Source: an uncultured Candidatus Saccharibacteria bacterium
GTDB lineage: Bacteria; Patescibacteriota; Minisyncoccia; Phycocordibacterales; DATGWK01
Direction: 5' to 3'
Length of the DNA stretch: 64,000 bases
NCBI GenBank assembly: GCA_964428845.1
Contig: CAYRZH010000003.1
Span: forward strand, 25,884-89,883
The notes beneath the pieces are model-generated. The model ran no database searches, had not been told where the DNA came from, and saw only the letters and a program-made list of their open reading frames with translations. Position numbers and translations under genes: made by a program. Positions 3,077 to 60,283 of the stretch are shown here, piece after piece. Position 1 is the stretch's first letter, and the number at the start of each line of letters is the position of its first letter.

Positions 3077-3895
3077 ATGCTACAATTGAGCCCTATGAAA
3101 ACAAACAAAGGCTCACTCGCCGTTCCAATTGCCATCGTTATAGCTGGTGCCCTTATCGCCGTTGCGGTTTATTTTTCCGGATCTAAAGTAGGCCCAGCCC
3201 CGACGACAAATACCAACGGTCCAGCGCCAGCTGGTATTTTGACTGGTGATATCAAGGTGCCTCTAGTAGGATCGAATGATCATATTCTCGGCAATCCCAA
3301 TGCTCCGATTATTTTCGTCGAATATTCAGATACAGAATGTCCATTCTGTAAGCAATTCCACGCAACAATGCACAAAGTTATGGATAAATACGGTAAAGAT
3401 GGCCGGGTGGCGTGGGCTTACCGCCACTTTCCGATTGATACACTACACAAGAAAGCTCGTGGTGAGGCACAAGCAACAGAGTGTGCGGCCAAACTCGGCG
3501 GCAACGAAAAGTTCTGGAGCTACATAGATCGCTTACTTGAAGTCACAACCTCGAATGACACTCTTGACCCAGCCGAGCTACCGAAAATAGCCAAAGATGT
3601 TGGTCTTGATACCAAAGCCTTTACAAGCTGTCTCTCCGCAGGATCTGAAGCAGGCAAAATCGAAGAACAATATCAGGAAGCAGTTGCCGCTGGAGGAAGT
3701 GGTACCCCGTTCAGTGTCATATTGCTAAAAGACAAGTTTGATGGCAAAAAGATAAAAGAATTTGTCACTGGCCTCATTCAGAAATACCGATTGCCACCAG
3801 ATTTGATCGTAATATCAAATGATGAAAAGAAAATTTCCGTGGGTGGAGCAATGCCTTACGAAATCATAGAGCAGTTTATTACTGCCCTACAATAG
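3077..3895 (+). CDS. Membrane-anchored DsbA-family thiol:disulfide oxidoreductase (thioredoxin fold)
   Basis: N-terminal TM helix (LAVPIAIVIAGALIAVAVYF) and a CPFC active-site motif (YSDTECPFCKQFH). Confidence 0.75.
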   Translation: MLQLSPMKTNKGSLAVPIAIVIAGALIAVAVYFSGSKVGPAPTTNTNGPAPAGILTGDIKVPLVGSNDHILGNPNAPIIFVEYSDTECPFCKQFHATMHKVMDKYGKDGRVAWAYRHFPIDTLHKKARGEAQATECAAKLGGNEKFWSYIDRLLEVTTSNDTLDPAELPKIAKDVGLDTKAFTSCLSAGSEAGKIEEQYQEAVAAGGSGTPFSVILLKDKFDGKKIKEFVTGLIQKYRLPPDLIVISNDEKKISVGGAMPYEIIEQFITALQ

Positions 3896-18941: not shown

Positions 18942-19649
18942 CTAGGTGGCTTGAGGGACGGCAACTGGTGTATGAGAACCGACTTGCGACACAGCGAACG
19001 CGAACCCGCGGTCACGAAGCCTCCCGCCGCCAGGCCTGCCGCTGCACGCGTTGAGCCAGCGACCACCGCCGACACGGTCCGCGCAGAGCAAGCGCGGATC
19101 GCCGACGGAGTCGTTGATGGGTTCGTGCATGGCAACGATGTACCACAGACCCATCGCTTCGATCTCCTTGTCCGTGAACTTCTCACGGATGAGGCAGGCC
19201 AGTTCGGCGTTCGGCTTCGAGAGCTTGCGTCTGTCGGCCTCGGCGCGGATCTTCTTCGTGGTCCGGTCGTTGTCCTCGAAGAGCATGCCCTTGAGAACGG
19301 CGACTTCGGTCGTCACGCCGCTCGTCGGCTTGAAGTCAGGGCTTCGGAGCACCTGCTTGGCGTAGTCACCCACACGGAGGCCTCTGCTTTTGAGTCGAGT
19401 GATCCAGGCTTTACCGGTCGTGCCGTCGCTCGTAACCCAGAAGTAGATGACGCCGCCTTCCTCGTGCCAACGCTTGGGGGGGTTGGAGAGCGGGAACGGA
19501 CCACGAATCGCGTCGGCAATTCTCACCTGCTCTACCACAGATGCGCCTCGAAATCTCTGCAGATCCGCTCGAGTGACACCCCTGACATCCAAGATCTCCA
19601 ATGTGGCCATGGCTTCCGAAATAGGTATTTCACTGACAAGGCTCCCCAT
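18942..19649 (-). CDS. High-GC island gene 1: hypothetical protein of an unrecognised family (paralog of 50662-51318 and 26555-27223)
   Basis: About 63% GC against an approximately 40% host. Strong SD (GGAAGGAGAcccaaATG). Shares a 331-bp identical block with 50803-51133. C-terminal motif AMHEPINDS...GGGRWL..C.GRP shared with the two other island genes. Confidence 0.7.
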   Translation of the reverse strand: MGSLVSEIPISEAMATLEILDVRGVTRADLQRFRGASVVEQVRIADAIRGPFPLSNPPKRWHEEGGVIYFWVTSDGTTGKAWITRLKSRGLRVGDYAKQVLRSPDFKPTSGVTTEVAVLKGMLFEDNDRTTKKIRAEADRRKLSKPNAELACLIREKFTDKEIEAMGLWYIVAMHEPINDSVGDPRLLCADRVGGGRWLNACSGRPGGGRLRDRGFAFAVSQVGSHTPVAVPQAT

Positions 19650-19764
19650 TTGGGTCTCCTTCCTTCTTTTGGGCTCTCTTGCTTGCGCAAGCTCGCCGTG
19701 AATCTGATCAGCTAGAGGACCACTACGTCGTGGCCATAGCTATTTAAAAGAACGATTCAGTAGG

Positions 19765-26510: not shown

Positions 26511-26554
26511 GGGGCTCGAAGAGTCTAAAACGGAAGATGACCAATACTCAAGAA

Positions 26555-27223
26555 CTACTTACGACGGACAAACACCAAGCGGTGGCCAGGACCCCAGACG
26601 CTGAGAGGGCGGCCGTCGCAAGTACGGAGCCACCGCCCACCACAGACGTCGCATCCGACAGAGAACACGTCGAGGTCGCTGTACGAGTCCCAAATGGGAT
26701 GCATCGCGATAGCGACACACTCGTCGTTGGGTTGGTCGATGTACTGCAAGCGCAGTTGCGGACCGGCTTCTGCTGGACAGAGACCAAGTCCGAGCTTGTC
26801 GGCCTCGGCACAGATGTTATAGAAGGCCGTACTGTGCTTGAAGCCGAGTTCAGCTACTGTAACAAGCACGAGGTCGAGTTCTATCGGCTCCTTGCTCACG
26901 ATAAACTCGGGCTTGTCGAGGATGTCGCCCGCCGCCAGGTCGTCGATTTTCATTTTCGCGGACTTGATGGCCCTTCGGAAACCCGCGCCATCCTTGATGC
27001 CGGTGCCGAGCTTGATGGTTTTCCATGTCGACCAGGCCCTAATAGGCTCGGCTCTTGCCCTGCCACCATTGCGGAGAAACTCCGTGAACCGAACCCCCGC
27101 ATTGTGCGGACTGTCGATCAGTGCCTGGACGCCACTTGGGCTAAGCACTTCCCAGTTGGTGTTTGCCCCCAACTTGGCAAGCAACTCGAATCTCTGCTCG
27201 ACGCAGATTGTCTTGGCAGCCAT
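26555..27223 (-). CDS. High-GC island gene 2: hypothetical protein, a divergent paralog of island genes 1 and 3
   Basis: High GC. SD AAAGGAGGtagccaATG. Shared blocks with the island-1/3 proteins: GTGIKDGAG vs DGTTGKAW, ICAEADKLGL vs IRAEADRRKL, AIAMHPIWDS vs IVAMHEPINDS, CGGRWLRTCDGRP vs GGGRWLNACSGRP. Confidence 0.6.
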   Translation of the reverse strand: MAAKTICVEQRFELLAKLGANTNWEVLSPSGVQALIDSPHNAGVRFTEFLRNGGRARAEPIRAWSTWKTIKLGTGIKDGAGFRRAIKSAKMKIDDLAAGDILDKPEFIVSKEPIELDLVLVTVAELGFKHSTAFYNICAEADKLGLGLCPAEAGPQLRLQYIDQPNDECVAIAMHPIWDSYSDLDVFSVGCDVCGGRWLRTCDGRPLSVWGPGHRLVFVRRK

Positions 27224-27302
27224 TGGCTACCTCCTTTTCTGTGCAGCTTACCTCCCTCGCAACATGCGAAGAAAGCTAACCGCCACTCAAAGAACTCTCC
27301 AG

Positions 27303-27331
27303 ATTGTACATTTACTAGCCAGGCTTGTCAA
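27303..27331 (-). promoter_or_regulatory. Consensus sigma-70 promoter for island gene 2 (TTGACA-N17-TACAAT)
   Basis: Reverse complement reads ttgaca agcctggctagtaaatg tacaat. Confidence 0.6.
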
Positions 27332-27360
27332 TATCGATGACTTGACCTATACATATTGAC

Positions 27361-39002: not shown

Positions 39003-39863
39003 TTATTCTAAATCTATTGAATAGAAACGGTTACTGTCTTTTATATAAACCACCTCTTTGTCGACCCTAAAGTCAGGGTCTTCGCCCTTAAAGAGTGGGT
39101 AGAAATTGTGATAAGTTCGGTTGTCGATCTCCATGGCATAGATACTGCGATCGAGTGTTAACATAATAACATCATCCCGCCGAGGGTAGAAATCAATCTG
39201 GCCGATTGGAGAGTAGGCTGTGAACACTTTCAGAGTTTTCGAACAAGGTTTTGTTGGGCAAAAATATGGTGGGGTTCGGTCTTCAGGGCCAAGCCACGAA
39301 GCAAAGATCAAGTTGTCATCTTTCCAAACTTTTATGTTTTTGTTGGCAATCGTCACCAGACCTTGTTTTTCGACCAAACCATCATCTGTTTCGGTCGAAG
39401 CTCCAGCCAGAGTACCAGCGAGACTCTTGGGTTTTGTAAAAAACAGGTTTTGCAAATCCTTGTAGATTTCATTTGTTCGAAAGATTTCTTTAACAGGAAG
39501 CGATCGTGGAATAAGAAGCGGATAAAGAGCTGATACTTCGCCTTGTAGAACAGGCACAATTTTGGCCCAAGGCCAAAATGCATCATTACCTGTAAGCACC
39601 AAATATTCTTTTGGTTTGAGATTTTTTACCAAAACCTCTCTTTGGAAAAGACTGGTAGTACGTTTGAGTTCATTGCCAATGTAAACATCTATGTCTGGCT
39701 TTGCTACAGAGACATATATACCACCACGACCATAAAAGCCGTTGGTAAGATCAATGGAATAACCCATCGAATAAAAAATGAGTATTGGTATGCAAAAAAC
39801 AAAGAATAAAACAAAAACAATAAAATATATGATTCTCTTTCTTTGGGATGCTGTTTTGGGCAT
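39003..39863 (-). CDS. Hypothetical membrane-anchored extracytoplasmic protein next to the GT2 synthase
   Basis: Single N-terminal TM (IIYFIVFVLFFVFCIPILIFY). No recognisable domain. Confidence 0.4.
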   Translation of the reverse strand: MPKTASQRKRIIYFIVFVLFFVFCIPILIFYSMGYSIDLTNGFYGRGGIYVSVAKPDIDVYIGNELKRTTSLFQREVLVKNLKPKEYLVLTGNDAFWPWAKIVPVLQGEVSALYPLLIPRSLPVKEIFRTNEIYKDLQNLFFTKPKSLAGTLAGASTETDDGLVEKQGLVTIANKNIKVWKDDNLIFASWLGPEDRTPPYFCPTKPCSKTLKVFTAYSPIGQIDFYPRRDDVIMLTLDRSIYAMEIDNRTYHNFYPLFKGEDPDFRVDKEVVYIKDSNRFYSIDLE

Positions 39864-44651: not shown

Positions 44652-46037
44652 CTAGAGATTCTGAAGTGGATCAATCATATTTTCCTGTATATTTTTTGCT
44701 TTAGCCATCACCTCATTGCCGTAAAAAGCATTCTTGGAGCTGCTCCAGGCACCACCGGCATAATACTTGAGGGCAGCGGTACGTTCAGCAGTGTATGTAT
44801 TGGCACCCGCCCCGAGGTCTTTCAAATATAGACCTGATGCCATAAAAGCATCCTGTGGTTCCCAAGGGCTGACCAATCTTTTGCCAAGAGCGCTAGCGAT
44901 ACTGCTTTTCTTTGATTCCCAGGTTGTCGGTATAAATTGGGATGGCCCCATTGCCCCTCCCCATCCTCCTTGCCACGGACAAGATAGTGGCATCGAATCC
45001 GGATCAAGCCCCAACTCACTCGTGATACGCAAATACGCGGCTTGGTCGTTTCTCTTCGACTTCTTGCTCGCGATAGCTTCTGGACCCGGCATTATTGCTT
45101 TCCAGAGTTTCGAAGGAGGATCGCCAGGGCGATTACATGTTCCTATGTTTTCCCCTAGATTTGATTCTTGAGTAAGGATAGCGAGGAGAAAGGCCGGTCT
45201 GACCCCGGTTTTTTGAGAGACAGCGATAGCATAATTTAGAGCCGTCCCAAAAGGAATAGCAGCTGTGTCTCGGAGAGCAAAGAGAGCGGAACGGATTTCG
45301 GCAGCTTTCTTTTGTCGATCTTTCAAGACCTGTTCATAAGTTTTTTCCTGGGTTTTGCTGATTCTTAAGAGCTCTTTCTTTTCGGCTTCATTTTTTTCAA
45401 CTTTTCTTTTTTCAGCTTCTACCACCTGCTTTATATCTGTCTCCTGGTTTTTCTTCTTCTCTAGCCCGATTTTTTCTGTTTCGGTGGTCTCTTTGGTAGT
45501 GCGAATTTCCTCAAAAAGCTCGTTTAAAGAACGCTTGATCGAAGAGAAAGAATCAACATCTTCAAAAAACTCGGAAATGTTTTGGTTGGAAAGCATGACC
45601 TCCGCCAGAGAAAACGAATCTATTTCGTTGCTTTTCCTGATGAGTTGGGCCAAGGACTCCTTGCTACGTTCGAGTTTGGCATTAAGGGTTTCGATAGTTT
45701 TCGTCTTTACTCCGATATCTTTGCCCAACCTTTCAATCGCGATGTTTCTTGCCCGGATTACTAGTTTAGCCTCCTCGATTTTCGCGTTTAAAATGGCCGC
45801 ATCACGTTCTATCGAAGCAGTTTCTTTCTGTTTATTTGTGAGGATCGTCCTCCATTGTTCGATCTGTTTTTCTGTAACTTCGAGTTCGGCTCGGAGGCGG
45901 GCTTCACGTTCGGCGATTGATTCATTGATACTCTGGGCTAGAGCAGTTGGTAAATATGAAAAAGACTGACCAGATAAAAAGAAAATAAAAATGGCAATAA
46001 AAAAGAAATATGAAAACCGCTGGATTTCGTTTTTCAT
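44652..46037 (-). CDS. Secreted coiled-coil protein with a C-terminal lytic-transglycosylase-like (SLT/muramidase) domain
   Basis: Signal/TM N-terminus. A long heptad-rich segment. C-terminal [10 protein letters not shown] (catalytic Glu-Ser context) and [13 protein letters not shown]. Confidence 0.5.
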
Positions 46038-53595: not shown

Positions 53596-54573
53596 CTATT
53601 TTCTCCCCACCACCTTCAAAACAGCTCTCTTTATAGCTTCTACTCCCATGCCGTAATGCTCGATGAGCTCGTCTGGCTTGCCTGATTGACCAAACTCGTC
53701 TTTTACGCCGAGAAATTCTATTGGTACTGGAAAATTTGAGGCTAGGCATTCTGCAACGGCGCTACCCATTCCACCCGCGATCTGATGTTCCTCTAGGGTC
53801 ACTATTGCGCCAGTTTCTTTGGCCGCATCTACAATAGCTTTCTCGTCGAGCGGTTTTATGGTTGCCAGATTTATAACATTCACATTTGTGCCAGCGGTTT
53901 CAAGATCGTGCGCCGCCTGCATGGCTCGGTAGACAAGCGCGCCGGTTGCGATGATTGTGGCGACCGGCGTATTCTTCGGTTCAAAAAATGTTGCCGCCTT
54001 CCCTATTTCAAAAGGAGTATCTTCGGTTGTGATAACTGGAGTCTTTTCTCGTCCAAGACGAATGTAAACCGGAGTATCTGTCTTTGCGGCCGCGATCGTA
54101 GCTTTGCGCGCTTCGATGGCGTCGCAGGGTGAGATCACCACCATACGCGGGATGACTCGCATGATAGCAATGTCCTCGATCGCTTGATGTGTGCCGCCGT
54201 CGGGCCCTACAGAAATACCCGCATGCGACCCGATGATCTTCACAGGACGATCGTTGTAGCAAATAGTGGTCCGGATTTGTTCCCAGTTTCTTCCTGGAGA
54301 AAACATAGCGTAAGAAGTAATGAAAGGAATTTTGCCCATGGCCGCCATACCGGAGCCAACTCCAGCAAGATTTTGCTCGGCAACTCCGATCTGCACAAAT
54401 CTTTCCGGAAATTTTTTGGCAAAAAGGTGGGCTTGGGCAGACTCTGTAAGGTCGGCACAGAGAGCTACCACTCGCGAGTCGGCTTCACCAGCAGCTAAAA
54501 GCCCTTCGCCATATCCTTTTCGGATCGGCACCTGCTCGATGTCAGCGGAAAAAAGTTTGGGGTTCAGGTTCAT
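53596..54573 (-). CDS. tkt: Transketolase C-terminal section (pyrimidine-binding and C-terminal domains) of a split transketolase
   Basis: 325 aa matching the transketolase C-half (GVAEQNLAGVGSGMAAMG, GPDGGTHQAIEDIAIMR). Confidence 0.85.
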   Translation of the reverse strand: MNLNPKLFSADIEQVPIRKGYGEGLLAAGEADSRVVALCADLTESAQAHLFAKKFPERFVQIGVAEQNLAGVGSGMAAMGKIPFITSYAMFSPGRNWEQIRTTICYNDRPVKIIGSHAGISVGPDGGTHQAIEDIAIMRVIPRMVVISPCDAIEARKATIAAAKTDTPVYIRLGREKTPVITTEDTPFEIGKAATFFEPKNTPVATIIATGALVYRAMQAAHDLETAGTNVNVINLATIKPLDEKAIVDAAKETGAIVTLEEHQIAGGMGSAVAECLASNFPVPIEFLGVKDEFGQSGKPDELIEHYGMGVEAIKRAVLKVVGRK

Positions 54574-55079: not shown

Positions 55080-55943
55080 TTATTTATTTTTAATGCTCAT
55101 CTCAACCTCCCGCAGTGCCGCGAGTGCCATCGCTGCCTCTTCTTTGTTTGGCGGCTTGCCATGCCATTCAAACTTGCGCTCGAACGCAGGCACACCCTTG
55201 CCTGGAATATTGTGAGAAATAATCACCGACGGTTTTTCAAAAATCGCTTTTGCCTGGCCCACCGCGTCTACAATTTCTTCAAAATTGTGCCCATTGATTT
55301 CCTGCACGTGCCAGTTCCACGCTTCCCATTTGGCTCGAAGCGGCTCGAGCGGCATGATGTCCTCGGTGAAGCCGTCTATTTGGATGTTGTTGCGATCGAT
55401 GATGGCGATGACATTTCGCAGCTTATTTTTCCCCGCAAGCATAGCGGCCTCCCAAGTCATACCGGAGTCGAGCTCACCGTCGCTCAAAAGTGCGTAAATA
55501 TATCGCTCGCTTGAAATGCCCTTATCTATCCTATCTGCCAGAGCCATACCCACTGCCTGTGAAAGACCACAGCCAAGCGGGCCGGAGCTAGTCTCAACCA
55601 TCGGCAAGAACTCGCGATGAGGATGACCCTGCAAGCGCGAGCCAAATTTTCTTAAAGTTTTGAGTTCTTTCAGGGGAAAATATCCGGCATATGCCATCGT
55701 GGTATAAAGGACTGGGCAAATGTGGCCGTTTGAAAGCACCAGACGGTCGCGCTCTGGCCAGTCTGGTTTTTTAGGGTCATGTTTTAAAAGGTGAAAATAG
55801 AGCGCAGTAAAAATGTCGGCCATACCGAGTGGCCCGGCGGTGTGTCCAGACCCAGCCTCAAGTAGCGTCTCAATGATCGTCTGTCTGATCTTGTTCGCCT
55901 GAAGCTCAAGCTCCTTTATTTTTTTATCTGTGAGTTCGGTCAT
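55080..55943 (-). CDS. tkt: Transketolase N-terminal section (TPP-binding domain)
   Basis: GHTAGPLGMADIF and GDGELDSGMTWEAAM (TPP-binding GDG motif). 287 aa. Confidence 0.85.
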   Translation of the reverse strand: MTELTDKKIKELELQANKIRQTIIETLLEAGSGHTAGPLGMADIFTALYFHLLKHDPKKPDWPERDRLVLSNGHICPVLYTTMAYAGYFPLKELKTLRKFGSRLQGHPHREFLPMVETSSGPLGCGLSQAVGMALADRIDKGISSERYIYALLSDGELDSGMTWEAAMLAGKNKLRNVIAIIDRNNIQIDGFTEDIMPLEPLRAKWEAWNWHVQEINGHNFEEIVDAVGQAKAIFEKPSVIISHNIPGKGVPAFERKFEWHGKPPNKEEAAMALAALREVEMSIKNK

Positions 55944-57223: not shown

Positions 57224-58018
57224 TTATTCTACACCTCTCTCTGGCCCTTTAAGTAAAGAATTTAGAAAATTTCTTGTAAGCGGTCCAAAGAAACCAGTAC
57301 CTGTCGTAATCCCAAGTTTTACCTTGTGGGTTTCCTGAAATTTAATCAGAGCTGTTTTAGTAAGTGGTCCAAAGTATGTTGATTCATTTCCTGGTGATCC
57401 AGTTCCAGAAACGGAAACAGTGAACTTGTTTAAATTTAAAATCTCTTGAAGAACTTTTACATCACTTCCGGCTGAACCAATTTGGAGATCCCTATAAAAA
57501 AGAAAGTGGCCCCATAAAGGTTGAGGAACTTTAACAGGTGGAATTTCTAGTTTGAATGGATTTTCAGTATCAACAGGAATCTGGGAGTTCCCTAGTTGCT
57601 CTATCGCCGTACCCGAATCTTCAATAAAAGCTGTGCCGGAACAGGCTCCTGTTATATATGATCCATTTTCGAGTTTATTAGCATAAACAAGATAAGTTTT
57701 GTCGAGCTGTGGAATTCCAAAACCACACATTGCATCGGCATTTGTTTTAAGTTCTACATACTTAAGGAGTGTTTTAGGTTTCCAAAACTTCGAGATCTCT
57801 AGAATTGTATTCGCACTAGAGCCCAATGTAACGGATTGATTATACGGATTAGGTGTGACTTTGACAGATATCGCCTTACCGACAAACACTGCATCAGATT
57901 GAGCCAGTCTTTCGATTGGGGTCGTAAGCATACACGAACAAGCGTTGACATCTTTCGGAATAAATAAAATCGAGAGCGAGAAAGCGGTAATGAGAGAGGA
58001 AGTTACGAGTTTATTCAT
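57224..58018 (-). CDS. Secreted protein with a C-terminal peptidoglycan-binding (PG_binding_1-like) domain
   Basis: Signal peptide and Cys-rich N-terminus. C-terminal VKVLQEILN...GPLTKTALIKFQ pattern typical of PGBD. Confidence 0.55.
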   Translation of the reverse strand: MNKLVTSSLITAFSLSILFIPKDVNACSCMLTTPIERLAQSDAVFVGKAISVKVTPNPYNQSVTLGSSANTILEISKFWKPKTLLKYVELKTNADAMCGFGIPQLDKTYLVYANKLENGSYITGACSGTAFIEDSGTAIEQLGNSQIPVDTENPFKLEIPPVKVPQPLWGHFLFYRDLQIGSAGSDVKVLQEILNLNKFTVSVSGTGSPGNESTYFGPLTKTALIKFQETHKVKLGITTGTGFFGPLTRNFLNSLLKGPERGVE

Positions 58019-58816: not shown

Positions 58817-60283
58817 ATGGATTACCCGGATCACGACTTTGACTGGAAAGGTTTTGGCTTTGCTTTTAGATGGAGTGCGCTCTGCCTTCTCCTCGGCATC
58901 GCAGCGTATCAAGGCCCCCTTCTTCTTATTCACTACTACCCCACAACAGGACCGGCTTCTGCTGTGACTACGAAAAACAGCGACACTTATTCATCCCCCA
59001 CCCTCACGGCAAGTCCTTCTAGCGTCATCACCAAAAGAGAGATCAATTCTCTTGCTATAGCCGACGTCATTCCCAATGAAGGCAAGCTTATAGTGGCAAA
59101 TCTGGCAGACATGCGGATTTCTCTCTATGACGGAAGTACTGTCGTAGCCGAGTACCCCATCGTCACCAAAGGAAAACCCGGCACACCATGGGAAACCCCG
59201 TCTGGATTTTACGAGATAGAGACAAAGGAGAGAGATCATTACTCGACCATAGGACATGTGTTTATGCCTTACAGTATGCAATTTTACGGAAACTACTTCA
59301 TCCATGGCCGCACTTACTACCCAGACGGGACTCTCACATCGGCAACTTTTTCTGGTGGATGTATCAAGCTAAGTACCGAGGACGCCAAGGAAATTTTCAA
59401 TTTTGCTGAAATCGGTACCAAAGTCTTTGTCTATGACCCAAAGACTAGAGCTGATCTACCGACTCTCAATCTTGGGAAAAAGGATCTACCGGCGATCACA
59501 ACAAGCTCGTACCTGATCGCGGATATAGACACGGGAGACGTCTATGCGGAGCAGGATGCGCAAGTAGTGCGACCGATAGCCTCGATCACAAAGCTCATGA
59601 CCGCGCTTGTAGCAAACGAGACGATAAGTTTCAATAAAAAAATCGAAGTTTCTAGGGGCGGTCTCGAAAACCCTCCAGACACAGAATCATCTTTGAAAAA
59701 AATATTTGTCGTTGGCGACCTTTTCTATCCTTTACTTATGCAATCAAGCAACTCTGTCGCAGATTCTCTAGCTTATTATTATGGAAAAAGTGGTTTTATC
59801 GACTGGATGAATACCACAGCCAAAGCCCTGGGAATGAACTCCACCGTATACGCTGACGCCAGTGGTGCCTCGTCCGGAAACATTTCCACCCCGGACGATC
59901 TCTTCCGTCTTGCCGCCTATCTTGCAGACAAGAAGTCCTTCATTTTCAACATCACACATACCCCAGAGAAAAAAATAGTGGCTATTGATGGATCCATATA
60001 CAACATGAGAAATCTGAACGCCCCTGTAGACACCGAACCATTTATCGGTGGCAAAGCGGGACACACAACCCTCGCCAAGGATACCATGCTCTCTGTTCTT
60101 TCTTTAAAAATCGGCGACCAGACACGCCGAGTAGCGATAATAGTCCTCGGCTCGGACGATCGAGTGGCGGACACCTCTCGTCTCGCAGAATGGATCACTG
60201 CGTCAGCAAAAAGTACGGCGACTCTCACTGCTTGTGCATCCTGTGCAAAACCCTCGTATCGTAAGATTGAGTTGCCGTATTAG
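58817..60283 (+). CDS. Fusion: L,D-transpeptidase (YkuD) domain plus D-alanyl-D-alanine carboxypeptidase (S11/PBP5-like) domain
   Basis: YkuD catalytic HG...SGGCIKL. The downstream half has SITKLMTA (SxxK), SSN and KAG-like (GGKAGHT) motifs. Confidence 0.7.
   Translation: MDYPDHDFDWKGFGFAFRWSALCLLLGIAAYQGPLLLIHYYPTTGPASAVTTKNSDTYSSPTLTASPSSVITKREINSLAIADVIPNEGKLIVANLADMRISLYDGSTVVAEYPIVTKGKPGTPWETPSGFYEIETKERDHYSTIGHVFMPYSMQFYGNYFIHGRTYYPDGTLTSATFSGGCIKLSTEDAKEIFNFAEIGTKVFVYDPKTRADLPTLNLGKKDLPAITTSSYLIADIDTGDVYAEQDAQVVRPIASITKLMTALVANETISFNKKIEVSRGGLENPPDTESSLKKIFVVGDLFYPLLMQSSNSVADSLAYYYGKSGFIDWMNTTAKALGMNSTVYADASGASSGNISTPDDLFRLAAYLADKKSFIFNITHTPEKKIVAIDGSIYNMRNLNAPVDTEPFIGGKAGHTTLAKDTMLSVLSLKIGDQTRRVAIIVLGSDDRVADTSRLAEWITASAKSTATLTACASCAKPSYRKIELPY

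Follow-up and report, generated by a model that had tools for sequence, protein, structure and literature searches.

A conserved fusion of YkuD and Peptidase_S11 domains in the Patescibacteria and its possible role in peptidoglycan cross-linking

We describe a protein in which a YkuD L,D-transpeptidase domain and a class C penicillin-binding D,D-peptidase domain of the S11 type are joined in a single chain. The fusion is conserved and uncharacterised, and it represents a large family within the Patescibacteria, the only group in which it has been found so far. The two enzyme families are already known, as is the way in which they cooperate in trans; what is new is the covalent YkuD-S11 fusion with its linker of fixed length, together with a third S11 motif of the variant form K-[V/A/I]-G and clade-specific motifs at both ends of the chain. 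On balance, we lean toward the hypothesis that the protein makes its own tetrapeptides and then uses them to form 3-3 cross-links.

Architecture of the fusion protein

The gene is located in a window of 64,000 nucleotides, the whole stretch of DNA that was analysed, from an uncultured Candidatus Saccharibacteria bacterium. Its features are, from the N- to the C-terminus:

58817..60283, + strand: complete gene of the YkuD-Peptidase_S11 fusion, one unbroken open reading frame from ATG to TAG, 488 amino acids (from the list of open reading frames)
58829..58861, + strand: N-terminal cytoplasmic motif DHDFDWKGFGF, residues 5-15; family consensus HSFDWKGF, clade-specific
58865..58936, + strand: single transmembrane helix or signal anchor, residues 17-40, from hydropathy and AlphaFold2
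58955..59026, + strand: disordered Ala/Pro/Thr/Ser-rich spacer between the membrane and the catalytic modules, residues 47-70, pLDDT <50
59072..59437, + strand: YkuD L,D-transpeptidase domain, residues 86-207; His163 at nucleotides 59303-59305, Cys182 within SGGCIKL at nucleotides 59351-59371
59438..59488, + strand: interdomain linker, residues 208-224, variable in sequence and fixed in length
59489..60211, + strand: Peptidase_S11 class C penicillin-binding D,D-peptidase domain, residues 225-465; SITK at nucleotides 59582-59593, SSN at 59744-59752, KAGHT at 60053-60067
60230..60280, + strand: C-terminal tail ACASCAKPSYRKIELPY, residues 472-488, with a conserved CxxC followed by Y-R-K-I; clade-specific

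The original prediction that the two domains are fused in one polypeptide is borne out by this single 488-residue reading frame, in which both Pfam domains score far above their cutoffs. YkuD (PF03734) was identified at residues 90-205 with 68.1 bits against a cutoff of 23.4 (E 1.7e-18, profile positions 2-146 of 146). The score of the second half exceeds the threshold of the penicillin-binding profile, with Peptidase_S11 (PF00768) matching residues 225-446 at 100.1 bits against a cutoff of 27.6 (E 1.8e-28, profile positions 8-237 of 239). The folds are those of the two families, a beta-sandwich in the YkuD half and a penicillin-binding, beta-lactamase-like fold in the S11 half.

A single peak stands out in the Kyte-Doolittle profile (19-residue window), at residues 20-38 with a mean of 1.87 and no second comparable segment, and the AlphaFold2 model places a helix at residues 10-40. 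The spacer that follows is 34-67 residues long, depending on the family member, and consists of 18% A, 16% P, 14% T and 13% S. The segment between D207 and Y232, which contains the interdomain linker, measures 25-27 residues in all of the best 120 of 1327 homologues and exactly 26 in 100 of them. The AlphaFold2 model, built from 120 sequences, has a mean pLDDT of 90.5 and a pTM of 0.82, and disorder is confined to the spacer at residues 47-70. Since this pTM was obtained despite a free helix and a disordered spacer, the model suggests that the two catalytic domains are packed in a defined arrangement.

Both ends of the chain are conserved in the same 120 homologues. At the N-terminus, F8 is kept in 103/120, D9 in 108/120, W10 in 96/120 and G12 in 100/120. 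The C-terminal tail of 17 residues follows the pattern A-C-x-x-C-(3-5)-Y-R-K-I-x-L, with C473 and C476 in 118/120, R482 in 115/120 and I484 in 116/120, and the chain ends two residues past I484 in 102/120. In the AlphaFold2 model the tail has a pLDDT of 71-87 and forms a short helix at residues 472-477.

Occurrence in the Patescibacteria and genomic surroundings

Among about 5.8 billion clustered proteins, 1327 matches were found, of which the best 120 are 450-527 amino acids long, share 51-62% identity over 85-100% of the query and all contain both PF03734 and PF00768. The assemblies behind these clusters are from NCBI, JGI, ENA and Logan. An exhaustive search with a profile, run on 1.84 billion representatives at 50% identity, identified 1399 proteins at E <= 1e-30; all of the best 150 of these span the junction in one stretch, and 136 of the 150 fully cover both domains. 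When one genome per GTDB species was scanned, 56 two-domain loci were found, every one in a Patescibacteria MAG and mostly of the Parcubacteria type, a lineage limit that applies to the cases found with the two peptide patterns on which the scan relied. The loci are labelled Parcubacteria, Paceibacterota, Adler-, Kaiser-, Nomura- or Liptonbacteria, or carry generic names. Outside these 56 loci, the same scan recovered single-domain matches only, to S11 in Actinobacteria and to YkuD in one proteobacterium.

The only reason to suspect that two adjacent genes have been joined by a frameshift or in a chimeric contig is the a priori chance of such errors in metagenome-assembled sequences. The reading frame has neither a stop nor a frameshift between the domains, the same continuous protein is present in more than 120 independent assemblies, and the architecture, with a linker of 26+/-1 residues, recurs in the best 120 clusters, in the 56 species-level genomes and in the best 150 representatives. 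The fusion is thus not an assembly artefact, an explanation that we reject as having a negligible probability given more than 150 diverse clusters with a fixed linker length.

The fusion was also predicted to be unusual, and this is true in comparison with the characterised bacteria and with the L,D-transpeptidases covered by a 2025 review, but not inside the Patescibacteria, where the family is large. A description of a YkuD-S11 fusion was not found in the literature searched, including that review, in which the accessory domains of L,D-transpeptidases are LysM, PG4 and endolysin/amidase only (PMC12729407). The databases do recognise the domains, as seen from the names of the homologues, which are “L,D-transpeptidase family protein” at NCBI and “D-alanyl-D-alanine carboxypeptidase” or “PBP7 endopeptidase,” sometimes with “/ErfK,” in IMG.

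The gene is monocistronic and is flanked by a divergent gene for a NYN-domain protein and a convergent gene for GAPDH, as identified by the Pfam annotation of the neighbours. No synteny is conserved around it among the 56 related loci: each of its neighbours in the window is common to at most 5 of the 56 loci, and any neighbour family occurs in at most 6. Gene context thus lends no support to a pathway assignment, and no operon or pathway context with recurring neighbours was found across the 56 loci. The neighbouring PG_binding_1 domain, sought across the related loci with local phmmer and HMM searches, gave no match, and scans for promoters, terminators and RNAs around the gene gave nothing notable. 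According to the Pfam annotation of 50 of the 51 predicted open reading frames, the window encodes housekeeping proteins, the exceptions being an SLT_2 lytic transglycosylase, a DsbA-like protein and a TIMP-like/PG_binding_1 protein. The gene set, which includes a split transketolase, RpiB, Rpe, GAPDH, RNR and RpoB/C, fits a reduced genome of the Parcubacteria type (cf. PMC4508563).

Active sites and possible functions

Both active sites are intact and conserved, and the motifs quoted in the original prediction (HG, SGGCIKL, SITK, SSN and KAGHT) were all found where expected. In the YkuD half, H163-G164 is followed by S179-G-G-C182-I-K-L, with 15 residues between the histidine and the serine, which conforms to the motif type [S/T]-x-G-C-[IVL]-[RK] with a cysteine nucleophile; the catalytic histidine and cysteine are each kept in 120/120 homologues. 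Sequence and fold searches alike relate this half to the bona fide L,D-transpeptidases 5bmq, 1zat and 2mtz.

The S11 half contains S256-I-T-K259, S310-S-N312 and K413-A-G-H-T417, the first two of which are regular SxxK and SxN motifs. Among the 120 homologues, the serine and lysine of SxxK are kept in 120 and 119, the serine and asparagine of SxN in 117 and 108, and K413 and G415 of motif 3 in 108 and 109. The residue between K413 and G415 is V in 62, A in 30, I in 15, T in 4 and S in 3, with Ala in the protein from the window, so that motif 3 of this clade is K-[V/A/I]-G and not K-T/S-G in 107/120 homologues. The PDB relatives aligned to the S11 half carry KTG, and a canonical motif 3 is presumably also present in mycobacterial DacB2; other subfamilies of the fusion have the canonical T/S. 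T417, which we take to be the counterpart of the threonine in KTGxT of PBP5, is retained in 112/120.

As to the type of D,D-peptidase, PBP7/PbpG-type D,D-endopeptidases rank first in single-sequence and profile searches alike (6azi, 77 bits with the single sequence and 115 bits with the profile, 30% identity). The score against the PbpG equivalog NF008668 of NCBIfam is 97.2 bits, under the cutoff of 294, so the S11 half is not a PbpG orthologue, although PbpG is its nearest characterised relative. Further relatives by sequence are B. subtilis DacB (96 bits), Listeria PBPD2 (86) and M. tuberculosis DacB2 (78), followed by E. coli PBP5/6 with about 50-56 bits; by fold, the half is equally near to M. 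tuberculosis DacB2/DacB1, PBPD2, DacB and PbpG. An identity as a PBP5-type carboxypeptidase was rejected, since the C-terminal beta domain is absent, with only about 23 residues beyond the penicillin-binding domain, and the NCBIfam scores for DacA (32.4 bits against a cutoff of 694) and DacD (42.6 against 610) are far under their cutoffs. These comparisons support a short D,D-peptidase of class C that may act as a carboxypeptidase, an endopeptidase or both. Of the predicted D,D-carboxypeptidase, the assignment to the S11 D,D-peptidases stands, but the carboxypeptidase activity is only one option, since the half is not of the PBP5 type and its nearest relatives by sequence are endopeptidases of the PbpG type.

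From the sequences and the model we infer the activities of the two domains, the direction in which a substrate would be handed over and the product that would be formed. The protein is predicted to be a bitopic membrane protein with a short cytoplasmic tail, one transmembrane helix and a flexible spacer that would position a rigid two-enzyme module at the peptidoglycan, outside the membrane. The S11 module could yield tetrapeptide stems by trimming pentapeptides as a D,D-carboxypeptidase, whereby the terminal D-Ala is removed, and/or by cleaving existing 4-3 cross-links as a D,D-endopeptidase, in the manner of PBP7 and mycobacterial DacB2. Tetrapeptide stems are the obligatory donors of L,D-transpeptidases, and either S11 activity would provide them. 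The Cys182/His163 pair of the YkuD module may then use these tetrapeptides as acyl donors for 3-3 cross-links. We propose that the covalent fusion keeps the supply of the substrate and L,D-transpeptidation in a fixed stoichiometry and in one place within a tiny cell whose genome is reduced.

The claim that L,D-transpeptidases receive their tetrapeptide donors from D,D-peptidases is well founded for enzymes acting in trans (PMC5089857; PMC6231781). In E. coli, PBP5 is necessary and sufficient for the supply of tetrapeptides to YcbB (PMC5089857). It has been proposed for the mycobacteria that D,D-endo/carboxypeptidases turn ageing 4-3 cross-links into substrates for L,D-transpeptidases, and DacB2 of M. 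smegmatis has both endopeptidase and carboxypeptidase activity (PMC6231781). FtsI (COG0768), a class A PBP (COG0744), MurF and MurJ all belong to the core genes tabulated for 17 Parcubacteria genomes, a list from which the COGs of the fusion are absent (PMC4508563 Table S1). With MurF in the core, pentapeptide precursors that need trimming are to be expected.

An alternative that we consider unlikely is that both domains trim the same stem in sequence, the S11 half as a D,D-carboxypeptidase (pentapeptide to tetrapeptide) and the YkuD half as an L,D-carboxypeptidase (tetrapeptide to tripeptide), which would limit cross-linking or ready the stems for recycling, with no 3-3 cross-links made. L,D-carboxypeptidases with a YkuD fold are exemplified by Csd6/Pgp2. 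The order of the domains and the fixed linker suit any two consecutive steps on one stem, and sequence alone does not separate the activities within the YkuD family, which comprise LD-TPase, LD-CPase or LD-EPase as well as protein anchoring (PMC12729407). Moreover, the L,D-transpeptidases of C. difficile give tripeptides through carboxypeptidase side reactions (PMC10980060). Yet the solved structures matched by sequence to the YkuD half (5bmq, 6fj1, 1zat, 2mtz and 3zg4) are all annotated as L,D-transpeptidase or ErfK family, and none at E <= 0.01 is an L,D-carboxypeptidase, which argues weakly against two successive trimming steps.

The YkuD domain might instead link another molecule to the peptidoglycan, such as a surface protein or non-canonical D-amino acids, with the S11 domain supplying the tetrapeptide. 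Attachment of surface proteins is known from the Lpp-anchoring L,D-transpeptidases of E. coli. Some homologues are named “lipoprotein-anchoring transpeptidase ErfK/SrfK” in IMG, PG_binding_1 proteins adjoin the fusion gene in the window and in one of the related loci (L080), and L,D-transpeptidases in several bacteria anchor proteins or insert non-canonical D-amino acids (PMC12729407). We nevertheless regard such a role as improbable, with no candidate acceptor protein conserved beside the gene in the 56 loci and with tiny scores for the E. coli L,D-transpeptidase equivalogs (NCBIfam LdtE, 21.6 bits against a cutoff of 480). Still less probable is a dual 4-3 and 3-3 cross-linker in which the S11 half is a D,D-transpeptidase like that of Streptomyces K15, since the similarity to K15 ranks under that to the PbpG, DacB, PBPD2 and DacB2 relatives and FtsI and the class A PBP already provide dedicated D,D-transpeptidases in the Parcubacteria core (PMC4508563).

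The preferred hypothesis of tetrapeptide supply and 3-3 cross-linking by one chain should also be viewed in light of the more distant family members. His, Cys, Ser and Lys are all retained in 84 of the 136 representatives that cover both domains. Another 23/136 have lost the YkuD cysteine and kept a canonical S11 site, and a further 23/136 have lost the S11 serine, mostly along with motif 3, and kept SGGC[IV]R; the two sets do not overlap, as confirmed by local inspection. A Kaiserbacteria-like branch of the clade to which the window protein belongs has lost the cysteine and has a deletion of ~23 residues at motif 3, and these catalytically dead relatives still carry the FDW and CxxC...YRKI tails. 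In 11 representatives of 750-800 amino acids, a third domain, PGA_cap (CapA-like), is present. Since the two-domain scaffold is kept when either site decays, and since the sets are disjoint, the domains seem to work as a unit. The reciprocal loss in about a third of the diverse representatives also means that a chain need not combine both activities. We argue that the upkeep of the scaffold despite the decay gives the pseudoenzyme forms a role, and the reciprocal decay points to pseudoenzyme roles in cell-wall remodelling, as does the K-[V/A/I]-G motif, which could in addition alter the reactivity toward beta-lactams.

One speculative hypothesis, to which we assign a low probability, is that the fusion is a dedicated “cross-link editing” machine. 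With the two sites in a fixed geometry, the PBP-like site would cut a 4-3 cross-link or trim a pentapeptide and the cysteine site would re-seal the stem as a 3-3 cross-link in one encounter, while the conserved cytoplasmic FDWKGF tail would tie the enzyme to the division or elongation machinery and the reciprocally inactive paralogues would serve as substrate-holding or regulatory subunits. If this is true, 3-3 cross-links would be a major built-in feature of the wall of these ultra-small bacteria.

Wall composition and comparison with known systems

The further claim that the fusion implies a wall built mainly by L,D-cross-linking is not supported in view of FtsI and the class A PBP in the Parcubacteria core, and YkuD enzymes may also be L,D-carboxypeptidases or L,D-endopeptidases. 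The window alone, in which almost all open reading frames are of the housekeeping type, says nothing either way. Cooperation in trans between D,D-peptidases and L,D-transpeptidases is well known: it underlies the bypass of beta-lactams in E. coli and E. faecium as well as the walls rich in 3-3 cross-links that mycobacteria and C. difficile build. Since PBPs and abundant 3-3 cross-links coexist in the latter two, a 3-3-rich wall is possible by analogy in the bacteria that carry the fusion, though the fusion by itself does not imply one.

A widespread natural fusion provides independent evolutionary evidence for the functional coupling of the D,D-peptidase and L,D-transpeptidase steps, and its ectodomain of about 400 residues offers a compact model for the hand-over of a substrate between both enzymes. 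It also leads to the prediction that L,D-cross-links are present in many CPR bacteria of the Parcubacteria type, the walls of which have never been chemically analysed.

A natural fusion is likewise seen in a protein from Clostridium (PDB 4xxt), which combines a predicted Zn-dependent amidase/peptidase of the cell wall hydrolase/DD-carboxypeptidase family with an ErfK-family domain, and its YkuD part matches residues 73-206 of the window protein. However, the partner there is a zinc metallopeptidase and not a serine S11 PBP, and the order of the domains and the group of organisms differ; to our knowledge, that fusion is functionally uncharacterised. PBP7/PbpG (PDB 6azi and 6muq; NF008668) is the best sequence match of the S11 half, with which it shares the short single-domain format, but unlike the window protein it is a soluble periplasmic protein with KTG that is never fused to YkuD.

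In the mycobacteria, DacB2 (MSMEG_2433/Rv2911), with an identity of about 25% to the S11 half, and the L,D-transpeptidases are separate proteins (Baranowski et al., 2018, PMC6231781). For E. faecium, the work of Sacco et al. (2010), as it is cited in PMC12729407 (see also PMC4161250), describes how tetrapeptides made by the D,D-carboxypeptidase DdcY activate L,D-transpeptidation by Ldtfm. DdcY is separate from Ldtfm, and it is a cytoplasmic, beta-lactam-insensitive metalloenzyme rather than an S11 PBP.

The same families and the same logic are encountered in the bypass formed by PBP5 (DacA) and LdtD/YcbB in E. coli, where an S11 D,D-peptidase feeds a YkuD enzyme (Hugonnet et al., 2016, PMC5089857). 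At about 50 bits, the S11 half shows little similarity to E. coli PBP5, an enzyme with an additional beta domain at its C-terminus and an amphipathic anchor; YcbB, for its part, is a large L,D-transpeptidase composed of multiple domains. The E. coli pair consists of two separate proteins, whereas in the fusion both minimal catalytic domains are part of one N-terminally anchored chain.

Loss of active sites and gain of a third domain among relatives

The relatives recovered by the profile search included 136 diverse representatives covering both the YkuD and the Peptidase_S11 domain, and two reciprocal pseudoenzyme forms were identified among them. The YkuD cysteine has been lost and the canonical S11 site kept in 23 representatives, while 23 others have lost the S11 serine, mostly together with motif 3, and kept the YkuD site, with no overlap between the two sets (examples are P0130, P0148 and P0152 versus P0141, P0171 and P0192). 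Five of the two-domain loci from our genome scan (L034, L036, L037, L040 and L049) are further examples of pseudoenzyme forms. Furthermore, one branch within the clade of the 488-aa fusion protein has lost both active sites, yet still retains the N- and C-terminal motifs.

Another modification is the addition of a PGA_cap domain (CapA-like, with a metallophosphatase fold). The resulting triple fusions number 11 among the 136 representatives, with PGA_cap scores of 216-244 bits. The domain order is YkuD, Peptidase_S11 and PGA_cap in P0129, P0145, P0159, P0170 and P0252 (765-800 aa), with P0235 as an exception in that PGA_cap is placed in front; locus L041 also belongs to this group.

Clade-specific motifs of the fusion protein

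Three short motifs of the fusion protein were considered, along with one gene located elsewhere in the window:

58829..58861, + strand, N-terminal cytoplasmic motif (family consensus HSFDWKGF) ahead of the membrane helix, clade-specific
60053..60067, + strand, S11 motif 3 as read from the sequence, K-A-G-H-T
60230..60280, + strand, C-terminal motif A-C-x-x-C...Y-R-K-I-x-L, clade-specific and with a constant spacing to the C-terminus
3077..3895, + strand, DsbA-like thioredoxin gene

The CxxC of the C-terminal motif could form a disulfide, and the DsbA-like thioredoxin is encoded in the same window as the fusion gene. At the middle position of motif 3, where T or S is canonical, 107 of the 120 clade homologues have V, A or I; T, S or N occurs there in other fusion subfamilies. 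Such a non-canonical residue may change the acylation of the enzyme by beta-lactams.

A TIMP-like neighbour of the fusion gene

The divergent neighbour upstream of the fusion gene encodes a protein with two modules indicated by the Pfam scan:

57224..58018, - strand, TIMP-like/PG_binding_1 protein, 264 aa

This protein looks secreted. Its N-terminal TIMP/netrin-like domain, which begins at a Cys-x-Cys, scored slightly below the Pfam cutoff (21.7 versus 23.1 bits), and PG_binding_1 forms the C-terminus (26.4 bits). A bacterial TIMP-like module, putatively tethered to peptidoglycan and encoded next to the gene for a cell-wall enzyme, is unusual. An 805-aa PG_binding_1 protein is also encoded upstream of the fusion gene at locus L080, and a local search across related loci identified no recurrent association between PG_binding_1 proteins and the fusion gene.

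Gene content of the window and organism labels

The following genes were identified by Pfam:

44652..46037, - strand, SLT_2 (MltB-like lytic transglycosylase) domain protein, 461 aa
25044..25985, - strand, single 313-aa ORF with NusB (113.5 bits) and NUDIX hydrolase (41.2 bits) domains
53596..54573, - strand, and 55080..55943, - strand, split transketolase with separate genes for the N-terminal (TPP-binding) and C-terminal (pyrimidine-binding plus C) parts

Among the ORFs of the window scanned with Pfam, only the SLT_2 protein is, besides the fusion protein, clearly a peptidoglycan-active enzyme. The NusB-NUDIX ORF represents another unusual fusion from the same genome. No Pfam match was obtained for three ORFs of 254-286 aa:

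18951..19715, + strand
26537..27340, + strand
39003..39863, - strand

The first two of these lie within the window's two most G+C-rich stretches (G+C content 0.51-0.52).

The organism labels on the related loci from the genome scan look unreliable. The loci L002 ("Woesebacteria") and L008 ("Parcubacteria group") both encode proteins of 479 aa with identical residues in every inspected motif segment, and many loci from "uncultured Candidatus Saccharibacteria" TPA MAGs fall among Parcubacteria-type sequences. For a finer taxonomy of the family, GTDB placement should be preferred to record titles. In the window, the two transketolase genes are separated by a 116-aa ORF that matched no known family and are followed by Rpe and RpiB, and this non-oxidative pentose-phosphate set is typical of Parcubacteria (PMC4508563).
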